Shown in pieces: positions 9,741-59,560 of a stretch of DNA of 64,000 bases. Positions within the stretch are counted from its first letter, which is position 1; each line of letters begins with the position of its first letter. This DNA comes from Naegleria gruberi (lineage: Eukaryota). The notes beneath the pieces are model-generated. The model was not told the DNA's origin. It ran no database searches and was given only the letters and a program-made list of their open reading frames with translations. The position numbers were made by a program, and so were the translations under genes. The DNA lies in assembly GCA_000004985.1 (NCBI GenBank), contig GG738855.1; one strand, given 5' to 3'.

Positions 9741-10099
9741 CTTCAAACTACAAAAAAACTGATTCAATAAATAGGAGGATCAGTTATATAAAGGAAGGTG
9801 AATAAATAAATTCGGAAAGGTTGTAGCTAGTGTGCTGCTGTTGTTGCGTATTTCAACTATGAAAATGAGAACGCGTTGGTAATTTGTGGAGTTTTTTTTT
9901 GAGTGAGTGCTCAAGGTCATCCAACGGATACCAGTTTATGAACAGTTTTGAGTGACGTTCGTGGGTGTTGGAAAAAAAAAGGATGGCGGGAATAGAGAAA
10001 ACCTTTAATTTCCTTAATTATTCTAATTGGATGAGCAGAGAAACTTGTGGTATTATCTAGTTATCTAATGACATTTCAAAATCCTTTCTATTCAAACAA

Positions 10100-25927: not shown

Positions 25928-27196
25928 ATGACATCATTATCTACTCTGATTGGCTCGGTGGTTGAGTCAAAGAATACATCAGCACCATACTCAATTATTG
26001 CATTATCATCATCATGTGATTCCATCTCCATTGAGGATATTTGTGGCAATCTGAATAAATTAAAGAAGGATCATGAGGCAACAGCCAAAGCATGTCTCAA
26101 AGCAAAGAAAGATAAAACAAGCCTTCACAAATTGACCGAACAACATTCGGAAGAAATTCAAAAACTTAAACCTTACATTGATCAACTAATTCAAAACAAG
26201 TTGAAATTAGAACAAAAGATCTTTGATTTACAATGGACAAGGCAATTTAAAGAACAAGAATTGGCTAGAGCAAAATCCGAAATATCAGATGAATCATCCA
26301 TCAATGAAGCCTTAATTGACTCGTATGAAGTTTCTCTCCAATCCATTCATGATGAATTACTCCTCTTCAAATCTCGAATGGAAGAATCAACAAAGATGAA
26401 AGAACACCTCTCCGAAGAAATTCTTAGACAAGGCAATATCTTTTCATCCCAATGTCAGGAGAAGAGAGGAAAGGAGGTTGAATTGAGAGAAAAGATGGAA
26501 GAAACACATCACCTTCATGAGCTGTTGGATTCTCTTGAGGAAACATACACTGCTCTGTTGAAGGAGAATGTTAATCGAACTTCCAGTTCTAATCAATCAC
26601 CACACTCAAAATCCAATGAAAAGCTATTGCTAATTGAACAACAAAAGTACTCCGATCAATTGAAGAATATCAACAACGAATTGAGAGAGTTGAGACAAAA
26701 GAAGCAATCTCTCGCTCAACAAATTGATTCCAAGAAGAAACTTAAAGAAGCCATGAATGAAGAGTTGAAGAATCTAGCAAGGGAATTGAAAAGTAAGGGC
26801 ATTGGTAACAATTCAGACACAAGAAGGGTAGCTGAGAATAGCTCTGCAGCAGATTTGACAAGCCCATTCTCTAATCATTTTTCTGCACCAAAAACTCCTG
26901 CGCCTTCAGCTCAAAAGTTTTCATTCAAGAGAACTGTAGTCAATCACGACCCTCAAAAGATCTCAGCAACAACTCCAGATATCAGACTTCTCAAGAGAAA
27001 AACCTCCCCAAACGAAAATGTAATTGATAATGCTAATCAGAACAACAATTCTTCCCGTGTCGACATTTCATCCTTTGCTTATAAGAAGAATGATTTCAGA
27101 AAGGCCTCTGATATTAACAGTGTCAGTAATTCCTCAAACAATAGTAGCAGCAGCACTCCGACAACCTACACATTCAAAAAGTTGAAAAAAGACTAG
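25928..27196 (+). CDS. Coiled-coil protein (hypothetical)
   Basis: 422-aa ORF dominated by heptad-repeat segments (KLKLEQKIFDLQWTRQFKEQELARAKSEI…) and a Ser/Asn-rich tail. Confidence 0.5.
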   Translation: MTSLSTLIGSVVESKNTSAPYSIIALSSSCDSISIEDICGNLNKLKKDHEATAKACLKAKKDKTSLHKLTEQHSEEIQKLKPYIDQLIQNKLKLEQKIFDLQWTRQFKEQELARAKSEISDESSINEALIDSYEVSLQSIHDELLLFKSRMEESTKMKEHLSEEILRQGNIFSSQCQEKRGKEVELREKMEETHHLHELLDSLEETYTALLKENVNRTSSSNQSPHSKSNEKLLLIEQQKYSDQLKNINNELRELRQKKQSLAQQIDSKKKLKEAMNEELKNLARELKSKGIGNNSDTRRVAENSSAADLTSPFSNHFSAPKTPAPSAQKFSFKRTVVNHDPQKISATTPDIRLLKRKTSPNENVIDNANQNNNSSRVDISSFAYKKNDFRKASDINSVSNSSNNSSSSTPTTYTFKKLKKD

Positions 27197-27217: not shown

Positions 27218-28930
27218 TTAGAATGAGAAGTGTCTAGCCACAATTGAATTCTCACCATACTCATCAAATTCATCCTTTGTAACACACATGTTGTCAAATG
27301 TACTCAAGGACATTAAGATGTTGGCTCCTAATAAAATGGAGTCCTCTCTATTCTTATTAATATTGACTGTTACCGTTTCAGCTCGCAATGACTTGGTTAA
27401 TTCTGATTGAGTGAGTTTCTTTTCCAATTCTGTAGAGAATCTCTCAGGTAAACCTTGGAAATTTGATGACCCTCCACAAACAACAAGGTTATTCAAGCTT
27501 GTCAATACCATTTCCTCATCCATAGATTCCAAACTCTCAATAACTGAATTTTGAATGCTTCTTCCACACCAAGATTCATAATATTGCTTATCAATAGATA
27601 AGTCAAAGAAAAATTCTGTACAATCTCCCAATATACCCTCTGATTCTGTTGGAATTCTCAAAATATTACCATCTGGAAGGTTGAAAACTGGTGCAGTATC
27701 ATTTTTTCTATCTTTCGAATGTACTTTCGTATAACAAAGTTTCTCCTTAATAGATCTCAAAATCTCCTTTTCTGAACTTGTAGCAAACTTTAAATTGACA
27801 GTATCCAAACATTGATTTTTCAAAAGCATTGCTTGTAATACTTCCTCAACTGAATGACCACCAAAAGGAATGGCCTTCAATGAATTCCATACAGGCATTC
27901 CTTCATAGACTGGCAATACTGTTGTGAATAACTCTCCCATATCAATAACCATACCACTTGTTTTACCAATACTGAAAATTGGCAAGACATGATCAAGAGA
28001 TAGATACATTTTCTCATAATTCCAACTATCGAATGCATAATGAACGAGTTTCTCCTTCAAAGTTACATCTCTGTACAAGTAGAAAGGTAAAGCAGTGAAG
28101 AGACATTTAGGAGAATTTTGAGAGTTGACTCCTCTAATAAATTCAGCAACTTTCTTCTCCAACATTTGTTCACAATAGGATACAATTGGTTCAGTGTATG
28201 ATGTTGGTTGCTGTTTTGTCTTGAATGGAAAATCAATACGTTCAGAGACAATATACTGATCGAAATACTTTTTTAGCGGATAATTAAGTGTACTAATTGA
28301 CCTTTGTTCCAAACATTCATTTCCAAAGGTTTTCAAATCTTGTCCTCTCATCTTACTTTCAAAATCATGATTTCTATCCTTTCTATTCGCAATAACAGTT
28401 GCTTGATTCATCAATCTAATCTCATTTCCATCTCTACTCATTGAAATTTTAGTATTTTGAGCACCAATTGACCAAAATACTTTCACTTGATCACTTTCTT
28501 TCAAAATCTTTTCCGAAAATCTTTCCTTTACCAACAAATCTTGTCCCTTTTTCAATTTCTCCAAGAATTTACCATCATCATTTCTATCAACACTCCCGAG
28601 AGTAGCAGCTTGATTTAAACTCTTTCCCTTTCTATCATTCAAATCACTCCACTTTAATTGTTGCAATGCCGTTGTTGGATCACCCTTTCCCAATTTGACT
28701 TTAAATTGTGTTGTATGTTTGTTTGAAAATGATTCCCTATTTGCTTCTTCGCTGGTTCGTTGGGCAATTTTCCTCTGCAATGAGACAATTTTATTGATAA
28801 TGATGAGGGAGAGGATGGAAACTACAATGGTCGAAAATGATAAAAAGATTAACAGATTTGGAGTTAATCCGTAGGCATCGAGGCCATAGTCATGAATGGA
28901 TTCTGCAATGGCTTGTCTCCAAATGTCCAT
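27218..28930 (-). CDS. Divergent actin-related protein with an N-terminal hydrophobic signal-anchor/TM segment and large insertions
   Basis: Actin-fold signatures in the C-terminal half: GMVIDMGELFTTVLPVYEG; VVCGGSSNFQGLPERFSTEL; LGANILMSLSTFDNMCVTKDEFDEYGENSIVARHFSF (compare the actin C-terminus [28 protein letters not shown]). The N-terminus has a ~23-residue hydrophobic stretch (LLIFLSFSTIVVSILSLIIINKIV). Confidence 0.7.
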   Translation of the reverse strand: MDIWRQAIAESIHDYGLDAYGLTPNLLIFLSFSTIVVSILSLIIINKIVSLQRKIAQRTSEEANRESFSNKHTTQFKVKLGKGDPTTALQQLKWSDLNDRKGKSLNQAATLGSVDRNDDGKFLEKLKKGQDLLVKERFSEKILKESDQVKVFWSIGAQNTKISMSRDGNEIRLMNQATVIANRKDRNHDFESKMRGQDLKTFGNECLEQRSISTLNYPLKKYFDQYIVSERIDFPFKTKQQPTSYTEPIVSYCEQMLEKKVAEFIRGVNSQNSPKCLFTALPFYLYRDVTLKEKLVHYAFDSWNYEKMYLSLDHVLPIFSIGKTSGMVIDMGELFTTVLPVYEGMPVWNSLKAIPFGGHSVEEVLQAMLLKNQCLDTVNLKFATSSEKEILRSIKEKLCYTKVHSKDRKNDTAPVFNLPDGNILRIPTESEGILGDCTEFFFDLSIDKQYYESWCGRSIQNSVIESLESMDEEMVLTSLNNLVVCGGSSNFQGLPERFSTELEKKLTQSELTKSLRAETVTVNINKNREDSILLGANILMSLSTFDNMCVTKDEFDEYGENSIVARHFSF

Positions 28931-29096
28931 TTTTTTTTAATGATTGCTGACAATGTTAATATCTTGTTTATTTTTGTTTATTTAATATTATTAAAATATA
29001 CAATTTAATATTTATACAATATGTTTATAGTTTTATTTATTATTAATTATGAAATTGAAAAAACAAATTCTCTTTATTTGGACAAAATAGAAAAAA

Positions 29097-30395
29097 ATGA
29101 AAAAATTCCTTCCCTCATCAACTCTTCACTTGTTGAAAAACAATTTCGGAGGCAAAATCATCCTCACACAACAAAATTCTCTGATTGTGAATAATAATTT
29201 ATCATCAGCATCACTCACTGTTAGAAATGCCTTCATCAATAATGTGATGATGAATAGGAGAGGAAAGACCATTCTCTCCGATACTCTGAGAACACAAACA
29301 AAGACTTCAAAGGGTACTGATAATAATCAATCATCTGGAAATGAAAAGGAGGAAAAACAAGGATTTTCTGCTAGTGATAGTAGTACTGGTACACAATCAA
29401 AATATAAAAAGTATGCCACTTGGACCTTAGTAGGTTTGGCTGGTTTGATTGGATGGATGGAATTAAATTATAGATCAAGTCCTGAATTTTCTGCTGGTGA
29501 TGCTATTAGAAAGGCAATTTACGGAAATCCATATAGAAATTATTTAAATACCAAGAATGGTGTTGTTTTGGAATTGAGTGTGGATGGTAATGCATCTATT
29601 GTTGATGAAGATGCTTCTCAAGTTAAGAAATTAGTTTACATTTCGGAGGAAGGAAATATTCACTTGATTGTTCCTGATAATTTTGTTCAACCTGGATTAT
29701 TGGTGAATGAGTCGTCTGCATTCAGAGATTCAGGTAAATTCAGATTGACTGATATCAGTGGTAATGATTTAATTTTGGAATGGAACAGAATCAATACAGT
29801 TTTGAGAACTAATTTACAATCAACAATGACACCAACCGAGGAAATTCTCAAAGCCTGTGCTTACAAATACATTGAATCTCTTCTTGAAAGAACTGACGGT
29901 ATCAATATTCAAAGAACAGAATACATCCACATACCTAACCCAAGAATTCCAGTAAAACCATTGGAAAGTTTGGATCCTCTTCCTGTTGATCTTCCATATT
30001 CCAGAATTGCCAATAAGAAGGGAATGGATATGGTATGTGTGGTAAGCTCACACCCAGTCAGCCCTGATTCTCAAGAAAAACTTTATAGAGCCGATTTGTG
30101 GTATGTACACTATCCATTCGTCTACCACTTTTGTGTAAATCAACCTGAACAAACTCGTAAGCTTGCTAATTTCCTTCAAGAAATCAAAGTTGATCCAAAC
30201 TCTGAAAAAGCAAGAGAAATTGTCAAACAAGCTTCCACACAATTGACAAACAAGGACGAAGTTCTTGAACAAATTACCTCTAAAACATTTGCTCCTGACA
30301 GATTGACATTAGACCCAGCAAAAATTGGCCTAAACTTGAGGAATGATTTGTTAAGAGTTCAACACAATAGTTTCTGTAAATTCATTTCCGTTTAA
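29097..30395 (+). CDS. Hypothetical protein with a presequence-like N-terminus and one predicted TM (possibly organellar)
   Basis: 432-aa ATG ORF; N-terminus MKKFLPSSTLHLLKNNFGGKIIL…; TM WTLVGLAGLIGWM. Confidence 0.4.
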   Translation: MKKFLPSSTLHLLKNNFGGKIILTQQNSLIVNNNLSSASLTVRNAFINNVMMNRRGKTILSDTLRTQTKTSKGTDNNQSSGNEKEEKQGFSASDSSTGTQSKYKKYATWTLVGLAGLIGWMELNYRSSPEFSAGDAIRKAIYGNPYRNYLNTKNGVVLELSVDGNASIVDEDASQVKKLVYISEEGNIHLIVPDNFVQPGLLVNESSAFRDSGKFRLTDISGNDLILEWNRINTVLRTNLQSTMTPTEEILKACAYKYIESLLERTDGINIQRTEYIHIPNPRIPVKPLESLDPLPVDLPYSRIANKKGMDMVCVVSSHPVSPDSQEKLYRADLWYVHYPFVYHFCVNQPEQTRKLANFLQEIKVDPNSEKAREIVKQASTQLTNKDEVLEQITSKTFAPDRLTLDPAKIGLNLRNDLLRVQHNSFCKFISV

Positions 30396-30415: not shown

Positions 30416-30950
30416 TTACTTGGCATGTTTCTTTGTGTATTCACGAGCAGTCTTATCGAATTTAGATCTATCATTAACATAGGCTTCAGCAGCATCGGCA
30501 TCGAGTGGTGAAGCAGTATTTGGATTCTTCATAAGTTCTTGAATAGCAATAATAACAGCTTCCAAGTTCAATGTTGGTTTCCAACCATCAGCCTTCAAAA
30601 CTTCTAAACAAATACCACCTTCAGCATCAAAGTTTGGATGGTAAACTCTTGTCTTTGCTGTGAATTTTGGAGGATTGAATGGATAGCTTTTGTATGTCGG
30701 ATCAAAGCATCATTTATAAGTGATGATGATTAATACTAGCTTGGAAGAAATTAAAAACTCACTTTTCTGGGAGAACACAATCAAATTCAAATTTACCACC
30801 TTCATAAGGAGTACCGGATGGTCCACCAATAATAATTTTCCAATGTTTAATATCATCACCAACAAGATCAACTGTACAACCATCGACTGGTTTGGTCTTT
30901 AACTTGTTGAATTCCTTGAGTGGTCTTTGGGCGGCTCCTGCTTGACTCAT
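30416..30950 (-). CDS. Ubiquitin-conjugating enzyme E2 (UBC fold), 2 exons: 30763..30950 and 30416..30686, 76-nt GTGAGT...AAG intron
   Basis: HPN…ICL active-site region (YPFNPPKFTAKTRVYHPNFDAEGGICLEVLKADGWKPTL) recovered across the splice. Total ~152 aa. Confidence 0.9.
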
Positions 30951-36218: not shown

Positions 36219-39200
36219 TTACTTCTTTTTGGCTTTCTTTGACTTTCCAGTCTTCTTGGCATTCTTTCTCTTCTTTGATTTAGGTTCCTCTTCCTCTGGT
36301 TCTTCCTCAGAGTATTCTTCAATATCATCATGTTCTTCCTCAGAGCACTCTTCAATATCATCTTCGTCTATTTCTTTCTTTTGAGATTTTTGAGAGAAAA
36401 GAACTGGTGAGCTAGGGGTTGGTGAACGGTCTGTCTTCTTCTTTTTTGAGGTCTTCTTTTTCTTTGGGGAACCCTTCTTATTAGAGAGACCTTGTTTTAA
36501 ATTTCTCAATTCCTCATCAATATTTTCCAATTCACCCTGAATTTCTTCAATTTCGCTCTTGTGTTTTTCAATAGTTTCTTCCTTTTGCTGTTCAGTTTGG
36601 GCATATTCTCCCTTCTCGAAAGCAATTGTTTCTCTGAGTACTTTCTTATACTCTTCAACCTTCTTCTTCTTTTCTAGCAGTAGTTTGACTTCAGGATTTT
36701 CGCTGAGTGGAGTTTGACCAAAACGGAAAACTGGTGGACCTGTAGCCTTAGAACCAGCATATACGATACCAGTTGCTTCAATTCTCTCTCCATCAAGTGT
36801 TAGAATCAATGGGACTGCTAAATTAATTTCCAGTCTCTTTTTTCTGAATGCCAAACCAGTAAGGAATGTTTCAAAAACTAAACTACTACCTAATAAATTC
36901 CAAAATGCATGTCTAATCATTTCTCGTCTAATGTCTATTTCTATCAGATTTACAGAATAGCCAACAAATCCATCTGCGTCAATTGGATCCAATCTCAATC
37001 TACCTTCATTATCCATACCTTTTGAACATTTCTGGATATTATCGAGGGGTAAAACTGGTATCTTGTGAGGGAAATTTTCTAGGAGTCGTCTCACTTTTTC
37101 CATACCATTAGAATCTTGTACAACAATACATTGCATCTTATCTCCCAAGAACCTAGAAATTGTGTCATTGTGCTTTTCATTATCTATATAACCTAGCTCT
37201 CCAAGAATTCCCACAATTCCACTATCTGTTTCCTTTTGGAGTTGTTTTACTTTCTGCAAGGCCTTGTTTTCCGCAAGGCCAACATTGCACTCTTTTTGTT
37301 TTCTACTGTTCTGTGTCTTGATCTCTAACTTCTTTTTAAGAATATTCAATAGTTTGTCAGCATTTTCCATATTTGGCATATCATTTTCGAAGTTCAATTC
37401 ATATTCTTTGATTGTTTTCAGTATATCATTCATTGTGGATCTGAAATTACTAAGCTTGAATTCATTCTCTTGGTGATTTTGCTCGGCTTTCTTAATTTCC
37501 TTCTTCAGATAATCTAGTTCACTGAGACAATTTTGTTTCTTCTCTTGGAGTTCCTTCTCAATTTGTTGAATAGCACTGTTATCAGTAAATCCAAATTCTA
37601 ACTCTTTTGGTGGAAGATTTTTAGTTGTAAAAACTAGCTTATACAAACCAGTTTCACCTGATCCCTCCTTTATGCTAACTCTTGAAAACTTGGCACGACC
37701 ATTCTCAAATTTAGCTACTAAATCCCCTTCTAGCTCAGGAAGTTCACTGTCCATGCTATCTTCTGTTGGTTGAATGGAAAGAGTGACCTTTTTAATTTTA
37801 TCATCGGCAATCACAGTATTGGAATACTTGTCTATCACTTTGAGTGAAAGTTCTTCCCAGAATGATCTTGCATCAATATTTTCTCCCATATTGGTAACTA
37901 CAGGAAGCTGGAATTTATCATTTTCTATTTCCAAAGCTTCCGGATCTCCAGGGGAGACAGCAATATCTAGAGTAGTGTTTATACTCCCATTCAGTCCAAG
38001 AATTGGAACATATGGCAATGAAGAAATGTCCAAAGTAAATCTATATCTGTAAACTCCGGATTTAGTAAATTCTTTTTCACTATTTGCGAATGTATATGTT
38101 AAACTCTTGGAAGCAGATGGGCATGATATGAATTGCCTTTTATCTCCTCCTTGAGGGTTTGCTACTTCCATAATGATTGAATTTGGAGCCTTAACAGGTT
38201 TTCCACTTTCTCCCAAAACTACAACTTCAAAAGGGTCTAAAAAGTCTCCCACCACAAGATTTGTTGTCTTATTGGTAACCTTGAGTTCTGCTGGATGGGA
38301 GCTCTTGATAATATTTACAATAAAGCAAGTCTTGTTTGCCTTTGTTAACTCGTATTCAATCCAGAAAGTATGTCTTCCCTCTGTACCTTTAACCCAAAAT
38401 TGTGGCATATAGGCTCTTCCATTTTCAATTTGTAAATCGATGGACTGATTGACTTCTCCTTGATATTGGATAATTTCAATATCAGTCTCTGGAGGTTCAA
38501 TCTCAAAGTTTCCATGTTGATGTATTACGTTACCAAACTTATCGTGTGTTGTAATGTAAAATGATGGAGTAAGATTATAATTTTCAACATCGAATACTAC
38601 CTCTCCTATCATGTCATTAACTCTCAAAGACACTGGTGGTCCTGGTTCAAGGAGAATATTTTCAATTTTACCCTCTTTGATTTTACCTCCCTTGTCAATA
38701 ATCTTCAAATGGAATTCTCCAGAAGGGCCTATCAAGCTTACATCATTATATTTAAAAAATTTAAAGTGTTCATGGTCATCCAATCCTGTTAGGAGTCGTA
38801 GTTTGTCGAAATCACAAATTTCAATACTTTCTGCTTCACCATTCAATTGAGAAACTATTTCAATTGAAGGTTCAATATTCTCAAGTTCTGGATAATTTTC
38901 ATTACTCTCGTTATCCATCCTATTTCCAAATGCATCCATAATACTGAACTTAACACTGAACTTTTGTTCACATTTAAGTTTTTCAGGTATTGACTTTCTC
39001 TCTATTTTAAATATGCATGGAGGCCCTGTTATGACACGTAAATTAATGGTAAAGTTTGCTATTATCATATCTGTGTCAATATCATCATCGTTCTGTACGG
39101 AATCTCCTGCTGCTTTGGAGAGTATATCGACAAAATATTTAGTAGTTTTAAAAATTTGTGGAACTACTAGAGTTGGTAATTCGCAAATACCTTTTTTAAC

Positions 39201-42200
39201 TTCTAAAAGATTGGCTTTACACCATGAAGCTCTGGCGTATGCATCAATCTCTATCCTTTCGTACATTTCATTGCATAATTCCAAATTCCATCCAACTAGT
39301 TCTGAACTGACTATTGCATTCACTGTTACTTTAAGTGCAGATCTCTCCTTGATCATATTCTTTTCCTCAGTGGTTCTAGTTAGGAGGTTAAATGAAGAAG
39401 GTTTTGCAACTGAAGCTGATTCAATAGTAAGTGGAACATCAATGCAAATATCTTGGTAACTTAGTGTTATATATGCCTCTTTTCGTTGAGAACTACTTTG
39501 AGAGCTTCCTATAGCTATATTTTTGAATTGGAAATAACCAGTTTCAGTATTAAAGGTACCAGAAGCTTCTTCTTTCAAACATTCTCCTTTTACGGTTATG
39601 GTGAGAGGGGTAAAGTCATCTTCACCATCATAAAAACATGGAATGTAGATTTGATTATTTTTCTCATCCAGTAATTTGGCCTCAATATCTGGTAGAATTT
39701 TCTTTACAGAGTTTCCTGACAAGGCAGTAGCTGCATCTTCAGAAAGTTGAATAGTGTGAACGGCTCCAGCAAATATCACCATATCAATTTCAAGAGGTTG
39801 CATAATTAGACCAAATGCTATCACTAATTTTGTTTTTACAAACTTGTTGGAACCTAATGGAGCACTTTTAACAACAAGCTCAGTAATTTCTATTTGATTG
39901 CTATTGTTGAAGGAGGCCTTAAATGAGGATAGTTCTACGGTATCATCAGTTGTTGTAATTTTAAGTTCTTCCGTAATGTTACAAGTTGTCTCTTTGAAAG
40001 GAACAACATTACCATACGTGTCTTGTTGTTCAATGATTAGTGTGGGGAATGGTTTGTCAATAAAGGTTAAAAGGGAATCCTTGAGTTGACTCTTATCTAA
40101 AAGAGATTTGGCACCTTTAACTTTTGGTAAATTGTTGGAAAGTGACAGAGTGGATGGCGCCGCAGCAGTTACATCAATTTTTACCACCTTTGCTTTGATT
40201 CCACTGTCCTCAGAAGAGGATAATTCCAAAATATAAGTACCCACAGATGTAAATTCTGGCTTCAGCTTGTAAGGCTTGAAGCAATGCACTCCTTTTTTAA
40301 AAGCCTTTGTTGAAGTGAGTGACTCATTAAGTTTTTGTTCTTCTTCATTATCACCTTCATAGGTTATGGTCAAAGTAACTGGGTAGAGTTGGTTTGTCAC
40401 AACCTTGTGATCTCCTGTCATTATACAAGCCGACAGGTATTTGAGAGAATATCCAGCTGTAACAGCGTCAGGTGGTGGTCTTCTCTCTCTTGCAGTAACA
40501 TTTGGTGTATCTACAACATCTATATAGCTCGGTAGCTTATTTTTCATTTTGCTGACTTCAGCTTTAAACTCTTGCTTGGTGAGAAGGTTTTGTACTTTTG
40601 ATATTGGAAAGCACTGTCCATTCTTTGAATCATCTGACTCCTTTTCAGGTGACCATTCCTTAACTACAATAGTTACAGAGTATTCTTCTGATGACATGTC
40701 CCTAAACATATCAACAAGAGTTCCAATAATTTTAGGTCTAGTTTTCATGACTAGATAATCTCCAATGGAATAATTTGTTTGTCCGTATTTGATCTTTTTG
40801 TAGAATGTTTTCATACCCTTTCCTTCTTTTTGAGTTCTTTCGAAATCACATTCGTCAAAAATTATTTCTTCATCTAATTTTTTGTGGCATTCCTTAATCC
40901 ATTTTCTATACCTCTGTGTCAAGTTTCTTTCGCTGTAATTTAAAAGTGCTTGACAGAGTGCTGTTTGTTTGCAAAGGTACATTTTGTTGGCCGATACTTC
41001 AAAATTAGAATCAAAAAAGAGCATTCCCTTAATTCTTCTATAGCAATTTTCTGGAATATCCCTATTACTTCTTTCCTTCTCCATAAAAGGTAAATTTTTG
41101 ATTTTTTCATTAGCTAACAGTCTACCATTCCAAAAGCATTCAAATCCAGGATTTCTTTCGCTCAGAGGTACTTCTTGGTCAGTAGGAATATATTTTCCTC
41201 CTTCCAAATATAATTCTTCTGGTATTGGAAGAGTTTCTCTTCCTTGTTTGAAAGGATAGTAATAAATTATTCCTCTCACTGTGCTATTAATTATCGACAC
41301 TCCATATTGGGATGATGTTGGCAGGGTCATTTCAGGCGCGTTCAAATTTTCTCCATTTTTGACACTGAGTTTGATTTCAAAAGTGAACGGTGACTTTCCC
41401 TCCTGAAGATATAATGTTTCCATGTCCTTGTCTTCATTCGATATGGCTGTGCCATCTACTTTCATTATGACATTTTTAGGTTGCTTTAATTGCCATAAAT
41501 CGTCTTCATCAATTGAGGGCATCTTTGTTTTCTTTTGAGACTTGATTGGTGGCATTTCTTCCTCCTCTCCTTCGGAAAGATCATCAATATCACTCATGTT
41601 ATCATTTTCATCAGGATCTTCAATAATATCTCTTCCTTCCTTATTACCATCAGTTCCATGTATATAATAGTGATAGATGTGGCCTAAACGCTTCTTGATA
41701 ATTGCTGGATCATATCTATCGACATAGACCTTCTTAATGTCCGAAATTGTAAAGTGAGTAAAGCTTTCCCATTGTTTTTCTGTATCAGTTGGAGGTCTAG
41801 AAATACAATTGGCTTTCCATTGTTTGTCTTTTCCTGAAGTAAAATCTTGCTCCAACTTTTGCCTTGAAAGGGAAACTTCATAAACAAATCTTGAATCTTT
41901 TGGTTTTGAGACAAGAGTGACTTCATCTCCCAAGTTGAAAATGGCCTTCTTGGAACCTACACCATACCTGGAAAAGTCTGACGTAACAAATTTATCAAAA
42001 AACCTTCTGCGGAGTGGTGCCTTTTCTCTTGTTGGCAACTTGGAATCATCAACTGGGGCTTCAGTAATACCAAGAGTAGCCCAATTGACTAAGGTTTTAA
42101 AATTCATTCCTCTTCCATTATCCCAAATATGGAGCTTGCTTGTAAGTTCATTACTCTGTGTAGGCTTTTCAAATCGAATTTCGATAAGCCTTTCATTCTT

Positions 42201-43037
42201 GTTGAGGACAGTGTTTTGAATAGAATTGTCCAAAATTTCAGCAAGAGCGGTAATGAAGTCATATTCATCTCCTCCGTGAATTAAAATATTTACATGAGGT
42301 ACAATATCTACAGTCAATTGTAAATTAGCCTTAACTTTAGAAGATGATTCAGAAGTATTTTGGCCATTTTTCAATGTCAATATAAAACACCCATGACTCG
42401 AAGTGGGTGGTAAGTTTCTTGTCGAATGAGCACTTTGATTAATGTCGTCTAATATGATAACTTCGTTGGTGTTTGCCTTAGATTTTCCAATTTGAGATGC
42501 ATCTAAATCGGCATCCTTTACATCCTTATCATCCAAATTTCTAATAGATTCAATTTCATTCACAGATTTTAATTTAAAAATCTCACAAATGTAATGTTTC
42601 AATTGATTCACACTTGAAATTTTAGATTTAGGCCCAACAAGTTTTGTTTTTCCAGTGTGGGCATCCACAATCTTGTACATTGTTGGATCTGAATTTTCTT
42701 CGATTTTTGCAGTTGTCTCATCGTTTAATTTGGTTTTTTTTCTTGATGGTTCTATTTCTTTCTTAATTTTAGTTTCTGTCACTGTTGGTGGTTGACTTGC
42801 AAGTTTTGTTGGTTGTGATGATGATTTTGTTGTTTCTTCCGATTCCGATATTTCTTCATATTCGTCAATAATATTACTATCATCTTGGTCTTCCAAATAT
42901 TTACTACTGTTATTGGAGGTACTCTTGTAACCATTTTCCTCATCGTTCTCTGAGGAGGTTCTCTTTTTAGATTTCTTTGCCGTTGTTGATGAAGAATTTT
43001 TGCTGTTCGTCTTTTTGCTTGATGACTTTGGAGGCAT
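36219..43037 (-). CDS. SMCHD1-like giant protein (2272 aa from ATG): N-terminal GHKL/MORC-type ATPase and C-terminal SMC hinge domain, with an acidic/basic low-complexity tail
   Basis: GHKL N-box and G1 box (LAEILDNSIQNTV … LHIWDNGRGMNFKTL). The C-terminal SMC hinge consensus GIVGILGELGYIDNEKHNDTISRFLGDKMQCIVVQDSNGMEKVRRLL…LTLDGERIEATGIVYAGS is preceded by a coiled coil. Single uninterrupted ORF; ATG at 43037 (MPPKSSSKK). Confidence 0.75.
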   Translation of the reverse strand: MPPKSSSKKTNSKNSSSTTAKKSKKRTSSENDEENGYKSTSNNSSKYLEDQDDSNIIDEYEEISESEETTKSSSQPTKLASQPPTVTETKIKKEIEPSRKKTKLNDETTAKIEENSDPTMYKIVDAHTGKTKLVGPKSKISSVNQLKHYICEIFKLKSVNEIESIRNLDDKDVKDADLDASQIGKSKANTNEVIILDDINQSAHSTRNLPPTSSHGCFILTLKNGQNTSESSSKVKANLQLTVDIVPHVNILIHGGDEYDFITALAEILDNSIQNTVLNKNERLIEIRFEKPTQSNELTSKLHIWDNGRGMNFKTLVNWATLGITEAPVDDSKLPTREKAPLRRRFFDKFVTSDFSRYGVGSKKAIFNLGDEVTLVSKPKDSRFVYEVSLSRQKLEQDFTSGKDKQWKANCISRPPTDTEKQWESFTHFTISDIKKVYVDRYDPAIIKKRLGHIYHYYIHGTDGNKEGRDIIEDPDENDNMSDIDDLSEGEEEEMPPIKSQKKTKMPSIDEDDLWQLKQPKNVIMKVDGTAISNEDKDMETLYLQEGKSPFTFEIKLSVKNGENLNAPEMTLPTSSQYGVSIINSTVRGIIYYYPFKQGRETLPIPEELYLEGGKYIPTDQEVPLSERNPGFECFWNGRLLANEKIKNLPFMEKERSNRDIPENCYRRIKGMLFFDSNFEVSANKMYLCKQTALCQALLNYSERNLTQRYRKWIKECHKKLDEEIIFDECDFERTQKEGKGMKTFYKKIKYGQTNYSIGDYLVMKTRPKIIGTLVDMFRDMSSEEYSVTIVVKEWSPEKESDDSKNGQCFPISKVQNLLTKQEFKAEVSKMKNKLPSYIDVVDTPNVTARERRPPPDAVTAGYSLKYLSACIMTGDHKVVTNQLYPVTLTITYEGDNEEEQKLNESLTSTKAFKKGVHCFKPYKLKPEFTSVGTYILELSSSEDSGIKAKVVKIDVTAAAPSTLSLSNNLPKVKGAKSLLDKSQLKDSLLTFIDKPFPTLIIEQQDTYGNVVPFKETTCNITEELKITTTDDTVELSSFKASFNNSNQIEITELVVKSAPLGSNKFVKTKLVIAFGLIMQPLEIDMVIFAGAVHTIQLSEDAATALSGNSVKKILPDIEAKLLDEKNNQIYIPCFYDGEDDFTPLTITVKGECLKEEASGTFNTETGYFQFKNIAIGSSQSSSQRKEAYITLSYQDICIDVPLTIESASVAKPSSFNLLTRTTEEKNMIKERSALKVTVNAIVSSELVGWNLELCNEMYERIEIDAYARASWCKANLLEVKKGICELPTLVVPQIFKTTKYFVDILSKAAGDSVQNDDDIDTDMIIANFTINLRVITGPPCIFKIERKSIPEKLKCEQKFSVKFSIMDAFGNRMDNESNENYPELENIEPSIEIVSQLNGEAESIEICDFDKLRLLTGLDDHEHFKFFKYNDVSLIGPSGEFHLKIIDKGGKIKEGKIENILLEPGPPVSLRVNDMIGEVVFDVENYNLTPSFYITTHDKFGNVIHQHGNFEIEPPETDIEIIQYQGEVNQSIDLQIENGRAYMPQFWVKGTEGRHTFWIEYELTKANKTCFIVNIIKSSHPAELKVTNKTTNLVVGDFLDPFEVVVLGESGKPVKAPNSIIMEVANPQGGDKRQFISCPSASKSLTYTFANSEKEFTKSGVYRYRFTLDISSLPYVPILGLNGSINTTLDIAVSPGDPEALEIENDKFQLPVVTNMGENIDARSFWEELSLKVIDKYSNTVIADDKIKKVTLSIQPTEDSMDSELPELEGDLVAKFENGRAKFSRVSIKEGSGETGLYKLVFTTKNLPPKELEFGFTDNSAIQQIEKELQEKKQNCLSELDYLKKEIKKAEQNHQENEFKLSNFRSTMNDILKTIKEYELNFENDMPNMENADKLLNILKKKLEIKTQNSRKQKECNVGLAENKALQKVKQLQKETDSGIVGILGELGYIDNEKHNDTISRFLGDKMQCIVVQDSNGMEKVRRLLENFPHKIPVLPLDNIQKCSKGMDNEGRLRLDPIDADGFVGYSVNLIEIDIRREMIRHAFWNLLGSSLVFETFLTGLAFRKKRLEINLAVPLILTLDGERIEATGIVYAGSKATGPPVFRFGQTPLSENPEVKLLLEKKKKVEEYKKVLRETIAFEKGEYAQTEQQKEETIEKHKSEIEEIQGELENIDEELRNLKQGLSNKKGSPKKKKTSKKKKTDRSPTPSSPVLFSQKSQKKEIDEDDIEECSEEEHDDIEEYSEEEPEEEEPKSKKRKNAKKTGKSKKAKKK

Positions 43038-43142
43038 TTTATTCTTGTGTTTGTTGGAATACCAACGAGAAATATTTTGGCGCCAAATCTTTAAAGATAA
43101 AAATACAGATCTCGTAACTAATGCCATGTTATTGGAAACACC

Positions 43143-58291: not shown

Positions 58292-59560
58292 TTAAACAAA
58301 GTTTTGGAAGACTTGGGATCTACGAGCAATAGATGGACCCATTTCATCATATTGAGCCTTGGTATAACAGACTCTCTTGAATTCGTTCATAGTACCCAAC
58401 ATGGAACCACCAAACCAAACAGCAAAACGTTGGTGATTGTGAGCAATAACGTTACATTCCAAAGGACTTGGCTTTGGCTTACCACTTGAAGTCATGGAAA
58501 CAGCTCTTTCATAACGTTCATCCAATTTCTTCTTCATGTCACGTTGTAAACGTCTATCAAAGTGTTCAAACATTGTTGAACCACCAGAAAGGACAATATT
58601 CTTGTACAAAGCTCTACGAGCATCAATTGGTGATGAGAGAATACATTGATCAACAACGTCTGGGAGTGGAGTGCTGAAAGTTTCAGTGAAAATTTCTGGA
58701 TTGAAAAAGACTTCTGGAGCCAAGAATCTTTCATAGGCAACATCAATTTCCCATTTACCAGATCTCTTATTTTCTTGAGAGTACTTGAGAATATTTTCTG
58801 CTGGATTTTGGTCAAATTTACCAAATTCCTTTGCCAAATCGGAACAGACATAACAATACTTTTCCTTGATCTTTTGGACAGCCAATTTGATATCTTCAGA
58901 TGGCATATTCTTTTCACGATCCATAACGAAACGCATCAAGAATTCAGTGACATCTCTACCAGCCAATGGGATGTGTTTAATACTAGAACCAATGACATAA
59001 CCTTCAACAACAGGAATGACGTGAGTAACACCATCACCAGAGTCAATAACAGTACCAGACAATGTACCACCCAAACCAAGCTTTTTAGATTTGGATGATG
59101 TCCAAGAAGCACACAAAGCCAAAACAGCTTGGACAGCAATGTACAAACCAGAAACGTTGAATGTTTCGAACATAATTTCAGCTGTTTGTTCACGATTTTC
59201 TGGTGGATTGAGTGGAGGTTCAGTCAACATCAAGTAGTGATCCTCAGGTTCACATTTCAAATAGTTAAAGAAGCATTGTTCCCACAACATTTCCATCTTG
59301 CTCCAATCTTCAATAAGACCGTGTCTCATTGGATATACCAAATCATAGTTTCCACCAGTTTTTTCTTGTGCTTCATAACCAATGTAGAAATCGAGATCTT
59401 CCAAACCCTTTTCTGCTGATTTTGGATTGTGTGAAATACAGGTTGGAATGATATAGTTTGGTTCACTGTTACCAGCATAACCCATCTTGGTAAAACCAGT
59501 ACCATTGTCAATAACAAGGACTGGATTGTTTCTAGCAATAACGTCGTTGGAATAACTCAT
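58292..59560 (-). CDS. ARP3: Actin-related protein 3 (Arp2/3 complex subunit)
   Basis: End-to-end Arp3 similarity: VIDNGTGFTKMGYAGNSEPNYIIPTCI, EPEDHYLMLTEPPLNPPENREQTAEIMFETFNVSGLYIAVQAVLAL, VIDSGDGVTHVIPVVEGYVIGSSIKHIPLAGRD, IVLSGGSTMF, AVWFGGSML. 422 aa, single exon. Confidence 0.95.
   Translation of the reverse strand: MSYSNDVIARNNPVLVIDNGTGFTKMGYAGNSEPNYIIPTCISHNPKSAEKGLEDLDFYIGYEAQEKTGGNYDLVYPMRHGLIEDWSKMEMLWEQCFFNYLKCEPEDHYLMLTEPPLNPPENREQTAEIMFETFNVSGLYIAVQAVLALCASWTSSKSKKLGLGGTLSGTVIDSGDGVTHVIPVVEGYVIGSSIKHIPLAGRDVTEFLMRFVMDREKNMPSEDIKLAVQKIKEKYCYVCSDLAKEFGKFDQNPAENILKYSQENKRSGKWEIDVAYERFLAPEVFFNPEIFTETFSTPLPDVVDQCILSSPIDARRALYKNIVLSGGSTMFEHFDRRLQRDMKKKLDERYERAVSMTSSGKPKPSPLECNVIAHNHQRFAVWFGGSMLGTMNEFKRVCYTKAQYDEMGPSIARRSQVFQNFV

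Follow-up and report, generated by a model that had tools for sequence, protein, structure and literature searches.

A predicted membrane-anchored, actin-like protein with a degenerate nucleotide site in Naegleria gruberi and its relatives

A 64,000-nucleotide stretch of contig GG738855.1 (assembly GCA_000004985.1) of Naegleria gruberi NEG-M, hereafter the window, contains on its minus strand, at 27218..28930, an uninterrupted open reading frame (ORF) that starts with ATG and encodes a protein of 570 amino acids plus a stop codon. The predicted protein joins a single N-terminal hydrophobic helix, through a charged linker, to a complete but strongly diverged actin fold. Here we describe the gene, its relatives and the two halves of its product, and consider what such a protein may do in an amoeba.

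Results

Layout of the gene

The features discussed below are listed in window coordinates.

27218..28930, minus strand: whole gene, the 570-residue ORF and its stop codon, for which the searched N. gruberi protein sets appear to hold no gene model
28856..28930, minus strand: acidic N-tail, residues 1-25 (MDIWRQAIAESIHDYGLDAYGLTPN), net charge -3, with a predicted exoplasmic or luminal location
28796..28855, minus strand: predicted transmembrane helix (signal-anchor), residues 26-45, LLIFLSFSTIVVSILSLIII, from hydropathy, a shuffle test, orthologs and AlphaFold2 (AF2)
28484..28795, minus strand: basic flank (NKIVSLQRKIAQR, net +4 over 15 residues) and then linker, residues 46-149, from charge composition and AF2
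27221..28483, minus strand: complete actin fold with four subdomains, residues 150-570, tail ...EFDEYGENSIVARHFSF
28448..28474, minus strand: degenerate phosphate loop 1, residues 153-161, WSIGAQNTK (actin C10-K18, CDNGSGLVK), from alignment
28181..28267, minus strand: family-specific insert of ~25-30 residues after YPLKK, residues ~222-250 (actin sensor-loop region, ~70-78), from alignments
27920..27943, minus strand: degenerate phosphate loop 2, residues 330-337, DMGELFTT (actin 154-161, DSGDGVTH), from alignment
28931..29096, no strand: AT-rich intergenic region of 166 bp, common to the divergent gene at 29097-30395 on the plus strand, from the sequence and ORF coordinates

The ATG stands in an A-rich context and is preceded, 9 nucleotides (two AAA codons) upstream, by an in-frame TAA at 28937-28939, so that no longer product is possible. 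The second methionine of the ORF, M164, falls within the first strand of the actin fold. Given the TAA on one side and this methionine on the other, the N-terminus is not an artefact of start-codon choice.

Nine large ORFs of the window were looked up in a collection of 15 billion proteins that includes the NCBI, UniRef and EukProt protein sets of N. gruberi. Eight of them match collection sequences exactly, seven of these with N. gruberi GenBank/UniProt entries on a 613-kb scaffold. Both genes flanking the 570-residue ORF are among the exact matches (25928-27196, plus strand, EFC47256; 29097-30395, plus strand, EFC47257), while the exact 570-residue protein is absent from the collection. Since the collection holds the N. 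gruberi sets, the gene appears to be unmodelled, and the reference annotation has probably missed it. The UniProt accession series from D2V7I3 to D2V7I4 has no slot for it.

A small, fast-evolving family

Four relatives of the N. gruberi protein were found, giving a family of five members.

Naegleria fowleri ortholog: FDP41_008225 (P0002/P0030), automatically named "Actin"
Naegleria lovaniensis ortholog: C9374_007655 (P0028)
Willaertia magna ortholog: ABK040_006846 (P0029)
Metagenomic relative: one sequence (P0001/P0027)

They were sought by word-index searches and by an exhaustive HMMER search, in which an N-terminal profile of 293 positions was run against 1.84 billion representatives; outside Naegleria, Willaertia and the one metagenome sequence, these searches returned no relatives. 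Two metagenome scans with family-specific peptide patterns yielded no further members, and a search for homologs with a profile that mixed the family with actins gave seven matches and no new relatives. The best homolog found of the N. gruberi protein is 39% identical, and identities of the orthologs to it are given as 34-45%.

All five members share one layout: an N-tail of 20-33 residues with a net charge of -1 to -3, a hydrophobic helix of 20-24 residues that starts at residues 21-34 and has a Kyte-Doolittle hydropathy of 2.5-2.9, a basic C-terminal flank (net +1 to +4 over 15 residues), a barely alignable linker of 63-105 residues of which 26-36% are charged, and an actin fold of ~420 residues. 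The N-tail motif MD..I..GL..YG(L/I)TP is conserved in the four Naegleria-type sequences, with M1, D2, I12, G16, L17, Y20, G21, T23 and P24 invariant, and the first ~55 residues of these four, all of which start MD, contain 17 invariant columns. The N-terminus of the W. magna protein cannot be aligned with the others, yet the helix is present there together with a QKRK flank. Over the whole length, ~90 columns are invariant in all five members, including LPFYL, VLPI and the L-F of the GxLF loop.

The ORFs, of 551-639 residues, are intact in the five genomes or metagenomes, the exception being a C-terminal frameshift in N. lovaniensis. The model of this species (PYSW02000030.1, about 9790-9850) ends VVESNMTKMENIF, and the canonical C-terminus, GREQYDENGEHFLVTTNFSM followed by a stop codon, lies in another frame after DLCV; the difference is a 1-nucleotide frameshift, either an assembly error or a real lesion. 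The Arp3 (actin-related protein 3) orthologs of N. gruberi, N. fowleri, N. lovaniensis and W. magna share one 90%-identity cluster. Set against this, the 34-45% identity within the present family marks a very large gap in rate and indicates that the family evolves fast while its architecture is kept.

In each of the four species that have named genome records (N. gruberi, N. fowleri, N. lovaniensis and W. magna), one contig carries both the gene and Arp3. The Arp3 gene of the window, 30 kb away at 58292..59560 on the minus strand, had been called canonical in the initial annotation, and its product does match N. gruberi ARP3 (EFC47390) exactly. The regional order OPT, GT8, this gene, MFS, one unassigned gene, RIB43A is common to N. 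fowleri and N. lovaniensis; in N. gruberi, homologs of GT8 and OPT and a coiled-coil neighbour lie within 20 kb of the gene. Arp3 linkage and this loose local synteny support orthology. The immediate neighbours in N. gruberi differ from those in N. fowleri, the synteny being only loosely regional, and they therefore yield no clue to function.

A predicted signal-anchor and a flexible linker

Residues 26-45 include no charged residue. The best 19-residue window has a mean Kyte-Doolittle hydropathy of 2.75 (to 2.81) and a summed Hessa insertion energy of -3.2 kcal/mol. When the protein was shuffled 20,000 times with its composition preserved, only 20 shuffles attained a value of 2.75. The best windows in seven other actin-family proteins reach just 1.0-1.8 on the same scale. 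These values, and the retention of the segment in the orthologs, bear out the N-terminal hydrophobic helix proposed in the initial annotation. No second hydrophobic segment was found, as no window exceeds 1.6 beyond residue 70 of the N. gruberi protein, and the same holds for the four orthologs. Within the helix runs a small and polar stripe, L30 S31 x S33 T34, which is invariant among the Naegleria-type sequences.

The 105-residue stretch that follows the hydrophobic run in N. gruberi is 36% charged, poorly conserved and predicted to be disordered, and a semi-conserved helix (~119-145) lies directly before the actin fold. AF2 models residues 24-69 as one long free helix with a predicted local distance difference test score (pLDDT) of 73-84, followed by residues 69-122 at ~32. 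Because a low-confidence linker separates the helix from the actin fold, the helix is not modelled as buried in a soluble domain, and burial, which had been named at the outset as an outcome that would count against a membrane anchor, was rejected. Pfam finds no domain in the first 150 residues (a HemY_N match over the transmembrane region, E 0.025, is below threshold). An NCBIfam scan gave nothing for residues 1-150 and only weak C-terminal matches to bacterial actin-like families.

A long hydrophobic segment preceded by a short N-domain functions, according to the positive-inside and charge-difference rules, as a reverse (type III) signal-anchor. At the level of sequence the protein has one hydrophobic segment of at least 19 residues, a basic C-flank and a short N-domain. 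A reverse signal-anchor is predicted since the core is long, the N-domain short and acidic, and the C-terminal flank the more basic one. We consider this architecture, and with it the predicted membrane anchoring, very probable. The predicted orientation, with the N-tail exoplasmic or luminal and the actin fold cytosolic, is also probable, though we hold it with somewhat less assurance. Both the polar stripe of the helix and the conserved peptide of the predicted exoplasmic tail point to a putative partner within or across the membrane.

A complete actin fold not assigned to an Arp class

The C-terminal part of the protein matches Pfam PF00022 at 151.1 bits against a cut-off of 27 (E 4.4e-44, residues 290-567), and its 60 best matches among sequences of solved structures in the Protein Data Bank are all conventional actins, with E 5e-32 to 1e-25. 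The actin-family signatures noted earlier in the C-terminal half, and the actin-like C-terminal tail, are thereby upheld. Because subdomains 1 and 2 have diverged and contain inserts, Pfam does not detect the fold before residue 290. When the family profile was aligned by hhalign with a small actin/Arp profile, the probability was ~100% (E 4.9e-39) and actin residues 51-373 were covered. In manual and in MAFFT alignments alike, the first strand with phosphate loop 1 falls at FWSIGAQNTK (residues 152-161), so that the fold spans approximately residues 150-570 and is preceded, as initially estimated, by ~150 residues of other sequence. An AF2 model built from a 12-row alignment with actins and the Arp3 of the window has a pLDDT of 68.7 and a predicted template-modelling score (pTM) of 0.62, with pLDDT 80-90 over residues 270-570; from the four orthologs alone, the pLDDT was 34.

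Identity is ~25% to rabbit actin, 23% to the Arp3 of the window and 20-23% to kinetoplastid axonemal actin-like proteins. Comparison with the solved classes gave the following values.

Kinetoplastid axonemal actin-like proteins: 31.6-33.0
Actin: 31.7
Arp3: 31.2
Arp6: 30.4
Arp4: ~29
Arp11: 28.3
Arp7: 26.9
Arp5: ~26
Arp8: 25.8
Arp9: 25.7

We class the protein as an orphan actin-like protein, as it shows an affinity to no solved Arp class closer than that to actin. Its earlier description as an actin-related protein thus holds for membership of the actin family (PF00022) and does not extend to an assignment to one of the Arp classes (Arp1-Arp11). A specific kinship to the kinetoplastid proteins is not supported either, because 20-23% identity is no higher than the identity to actin.

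Degenerate nucleotide site and altered actin surfaces

Residues were compared in rabbit actin numbering across the five family members, with the N. gruberi Arp3 from the same window for comparison. In loop 1 of the N. gruberi protein D11 has become S, N12 I, S14 A and G15 Q, with K18 kept; in loop 2 G158 has become L, V159 F and H161 T, with D154 and G156 kept. Every member carries a replacement at each of nine positions: D11 (S/A), N12 (I/L), S14 (A), G15 (Q/N/H), Q137 (D/E), G158 (L), V159 (F), H161 (T/V/S) and K336 (E/Q/N/D/V). The family retains K18 (as R in two members), D154, G156, K213, E214 and G301-G302, and residues D330, G332, L334 and F335 of the N. gruberi protein are invariant among the members. 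The Arp3 of the window keeps DNGTG and the residues that the family replaces, the sole exception being a conservative R at K336. The full set of actin nucleotide-binding motifs (DNGSG in loop 1, DxGDG in loop 2, and the adenosine motif with GG and K213/E214) is hence not found in the family protein, its loop 1 reading SIGAQ and its loop 2 DMGEL. Membership of the fold family stands despite the lost motifs, because some recognised Arps lack them too.

Because all five members have substitutions at phosphate-loop and catalytic residues, the label "ATPase" is doubtful. The fold is most likely a non-hydrolysing pseudo-ATPase, in which hydrolysis would have been lost and ATP binding is doubtful. 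Of the membrane-tethered actin-fold ATPase originally put forward, the tether is retained as a predicted signal-anchor conserved in five of five members, and the ATPase label is dropped as doubtful.

Nor is this a conventional actin, with 25% identity to rabbit actin and polymerisation contacts that are not intact. The D-loop is variable, the hydrophobic plug is 5 residues longer, and the subdomain-3 contacts at 283-294 and 322-325 are not conserved. As the D-loop, plug and subdomain-3 longitudinal contacts are not actin-like, a role as an internal filament subunit is probably impossible. Two other surfaces resemble actin. At the subdomain-4 tip (actin 200-208 and 241-247), FVTTAEREI of actin corresponds to FATSSEKEI and ELPDGQV to NLPDGNI, both of which have diverged in Arp3. 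The barbed-end hydrophobic cleft is mostly actin-like as well, with Y143F, A144S, G146, G168, L349 and T351 kept or conservatively changed and T148, L346 and M355 mostly so.

In the sensor-loop insert, D224, Q225 and Y226 are conserved in the four Naegleria-type sequences and not in W. magna, and AF2 places an extra helix at 218-230. Exactly at the D-loop, the orthologs of N. fowleri and N. lovaniensis have low-complexity inserts of ~30 residues, rich in Ser, Asn, Arg and Gly, and after the first strands a further insert; these are missing from the N. gruberi, metagenomic and W. magna sequences.

Neighbouring genes

The gene converges with the one at 25928-27196 (plus strand), their stop codons being just 21 bp apart, and the 3' untranslated regions must therefore be extremely short or overlapping. 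On its other side, the divergent neighbour EFC47257, at 29097-30395 on the plus strand, is a predicted protein of 432 residues that lacks a Pfam domain but likewise contains a hydrophobic stretch, YATWTLVGLAGLIGWMEL; it does not adjoin the orthologs in N. fowleri or N. lovaniensis. A 60-residue ORF at 30416-30598 (minus strand) resembles the C-terminal part of a ubiquitin-conjugating (E2) enzyme (…PLDADAAEAYVNDRSKFDKTAREYTKKHAK) and is probably one exon of an intron-containing gene. An uninterrupted ORF of 2302 residues lies 7 kb from the gene, at 36219-43127 on the minus strand.

Discussion

Taken as a whole, the observations are on balance best explained by a lineage-restricted, membrane-anchored and degenerate actin mimic. 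The protein would be a membrane-fixed, non-hydrolysing mimic of actin on a flexible tether, whose short N-tail would cross the membrane while the actin fold would stay in the cytosol on its flexible linker. There it could offer its actin-like surfaces, the subdomain-4 tip and the hydrophobic cleft, to a filament end or to actin-monomer-binding proteins, and as a docking subunit it would couple a membrane to the actin cytoskeleton. This mechanism of anchoring by mimicry is drawn from the anatomy of the predicted protein, and we put it forward tentatively. A bolder version, which we think rather unlikely, is that this is the first transmembrane actin or Arp of a eukaryote, a permanent mimic of a filament end that would seed, cap or anchor filaments at the membrane, possibly as a dimer through the Ser/Thr stripe, with the exoplasmic peptide coupling a partner across the bilayer in a KASH-like bridge of actin.

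Several points weigh against a membrane-anchored actin mimic. The transmembrane call derives from hydropathy scales and the positive-inside rule, and the ortholog accessions are not mentioned in the paper texts and supplement sets searched, which yielded no evidence of expression or localisation. In quality the AF2 model is moderate (pLDDT 68.7), and the completeness of its fold was partly guided by actins, as the 12-row alignment contained them. Among the retained patches are residues around K213/E214 whose conservation may be structural, so that to take the patches as binding surfaces is a weak reading. The idea of a conserved exoplasmic partner is limited to Naegleria, since the N-terminal motif cannot be aligned in W. 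magna. Finally, the fast evolution of the family could reflect relaxed constraint.

Of the competing explanations, the one that survives best differs from the favoured reading only by location: the segment would serve as a signal-anchor in the mitochondrial outer membrane, or in some other organelle, and the protein would tether that organelle to actin. As a matter of general knowledge, an N-terminal anchor with a basic C-flank resembles anchors of the Tom20/Tom70/OM45 type. Naegleria amoebae are moreover described as lacking cytoplasmic microtubules (PMC7594500), and organelle positioning is therefore plausibly actin-dependent. A Kyte-Doolittle value of 2.5-2.9 is nevertheless high for outer-membrane anchors, by rules that come from yeast and mammals and are applied here to a member of the Heterolobosea, and the tail of 20-33 residues that precedes the helix is acidic instead of short and basic. 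We regard an organellar anchor as unlikely.

A cleavable signal peptide or a type II anchor would instead leave the actin fold luminal or extracellular, and an N-terminal hydrophobic segment could in principle translocate the domain downstream of it. Typical signal peptides, however, have a core of 7-15 residues after a short basic n-region. In the present family the core, at 20-24 residues and starting at residues 21-34, is too long and too late, and there is no small-x-small cleavage motif after the helix, all of which makes a cleavable peptide unlikely. For either form, the acidic N-flank and basic C-flank found in all five members predict that the C-terminal side is cytosolic, and the fold retains surfaces that would be relevant only beside cytosolic actin. 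A luminal or extracellular actin fold is accordingly given little credence here.

We give slightly less to the view that the gene is a decaying or functionless, fast-evolving paralogue of a greatly expanded actin family, with a hydrophobic N-terminus that has no role. A published account credits N. gruberi with 78 actins and Arps (PMC7594500), and against that number a divergent paralogue alone would be unsurprising, the membrane anchor being the unusual feature. Decay would also fit the low identity across species whose Arp3 proteins exceed 90%, the degenerate phosphate loops, the frameshift at the extreme C-terminus of the N. lovaniensis copy and the lack of a model for the N. gruberi gene in the searched sets. 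Apart from that frameshift, however, the long ORFs are intact in every member, the ~90 invariant columns include family-specific motifs, and the transmembrane segment with its charge asymmetry is kept even where the sequence cannot be aligned. The linker varies freely and the fold does not, a pattern that fits purifying selection on the architecture.

The least credible alternative, that the hydrophobic N-terminus is an artefact of an upstream ATG and the true product a soluble protein starting downstream, could appeal to the absence of the gene from the searched N. gruberi protein sets, but was rejected because the ATG at 28930 is the first start after the TAA, a start at M164 would truncate the domain in its first beta-strand, conservation at the protein level extends over the first ~55 residues, and the transmembrane segment and basic flank are found in W. 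magna too.

To our knowledge, textbooks treat actin and its relatives as soluble proteins, brought to membranes solely by adaptors. Full-text searches of the literature for transmembrane or membrane-anchored actins or Arps found none. Compared with conventional actin (PF00022; rabbit ACTA1, Plasmodium actin-1 6i4f), the protein described here, at ~25% identity, has its phosphate loops and Q137/H161 replaced, its D-loop and plug altered, family-specific inserts, and a 150-residue N-terminal extension with a transmembrane helix. In the Dictyostelium actinome, the subject of the one explicit survey that was found, a signal peptide or transmembrane helix is predicted in none of 41 members (PMC2441452). 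The accounts available in part for orphan Arps (Drosophila Arp53D, mammalian testis ACTL7/ACTL8, apicomplexan ALP1 and ciliate tArp) mention no membrane-spanning segment for them, and the same is true of the partial accounts of the kinetoplastid axonemal proteins 9y6s/9e5c. In filactin, as in the 570-residue protein, a longer polypeptide has an actin domain as its C-terminal part (PMC2441452). The actin domain of filactin is described as strongly homologous to conventional actin and its extension as soluble, whereas here the fold has diverged strongly and a transmembrane helix with a linker makes up the extension.

Folds of the actin superfamily do occur at the membrane in bacteria, as in FtsA and MreB (through amphipathic helices), the cytoplasmic domain of GspL/EpsL, and PilM-PilN. 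GspL, a bitopic membrane protein whose cytoplasmic actin-like domain has lost nucleotide binding, is the nearest analogue of a tethered degenerate fold. By analogy only, KASH-type nuclear-envelope bridges likewise combine a short conserved peptide on the opposite side of the membrane with a single transmembrane helix, a long and flexible stretch in the cytosol and a cytoskeleton-related module. Their anchor is C-terminal, however, and that of the 570-residue protein N-terminal, in mirror-image orientation, and the two share no sequence similarity. KASH proteins bind actin through CH domains and not through actin folds, and a nuclear-envelope location of the 570-residue protein is unsupported.

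The N. gruberi copy, seemingly missing from reference protein sets, merits a gene model. The family includes a protein of the pathogen N. fowleri and was undetected outside Naegleria and Willaertia, so that this lineage-specific protein could be examined as a marker or target. Naegleria would be a fitting setting for it, its amoebae being described as devoid of cytoplasmic microtubules and reliant on actin (PMC7594500). If the reading put forward here is true, an integral-membrane actin fold would be a new way to couple membranes and the actin cytoskeleton.

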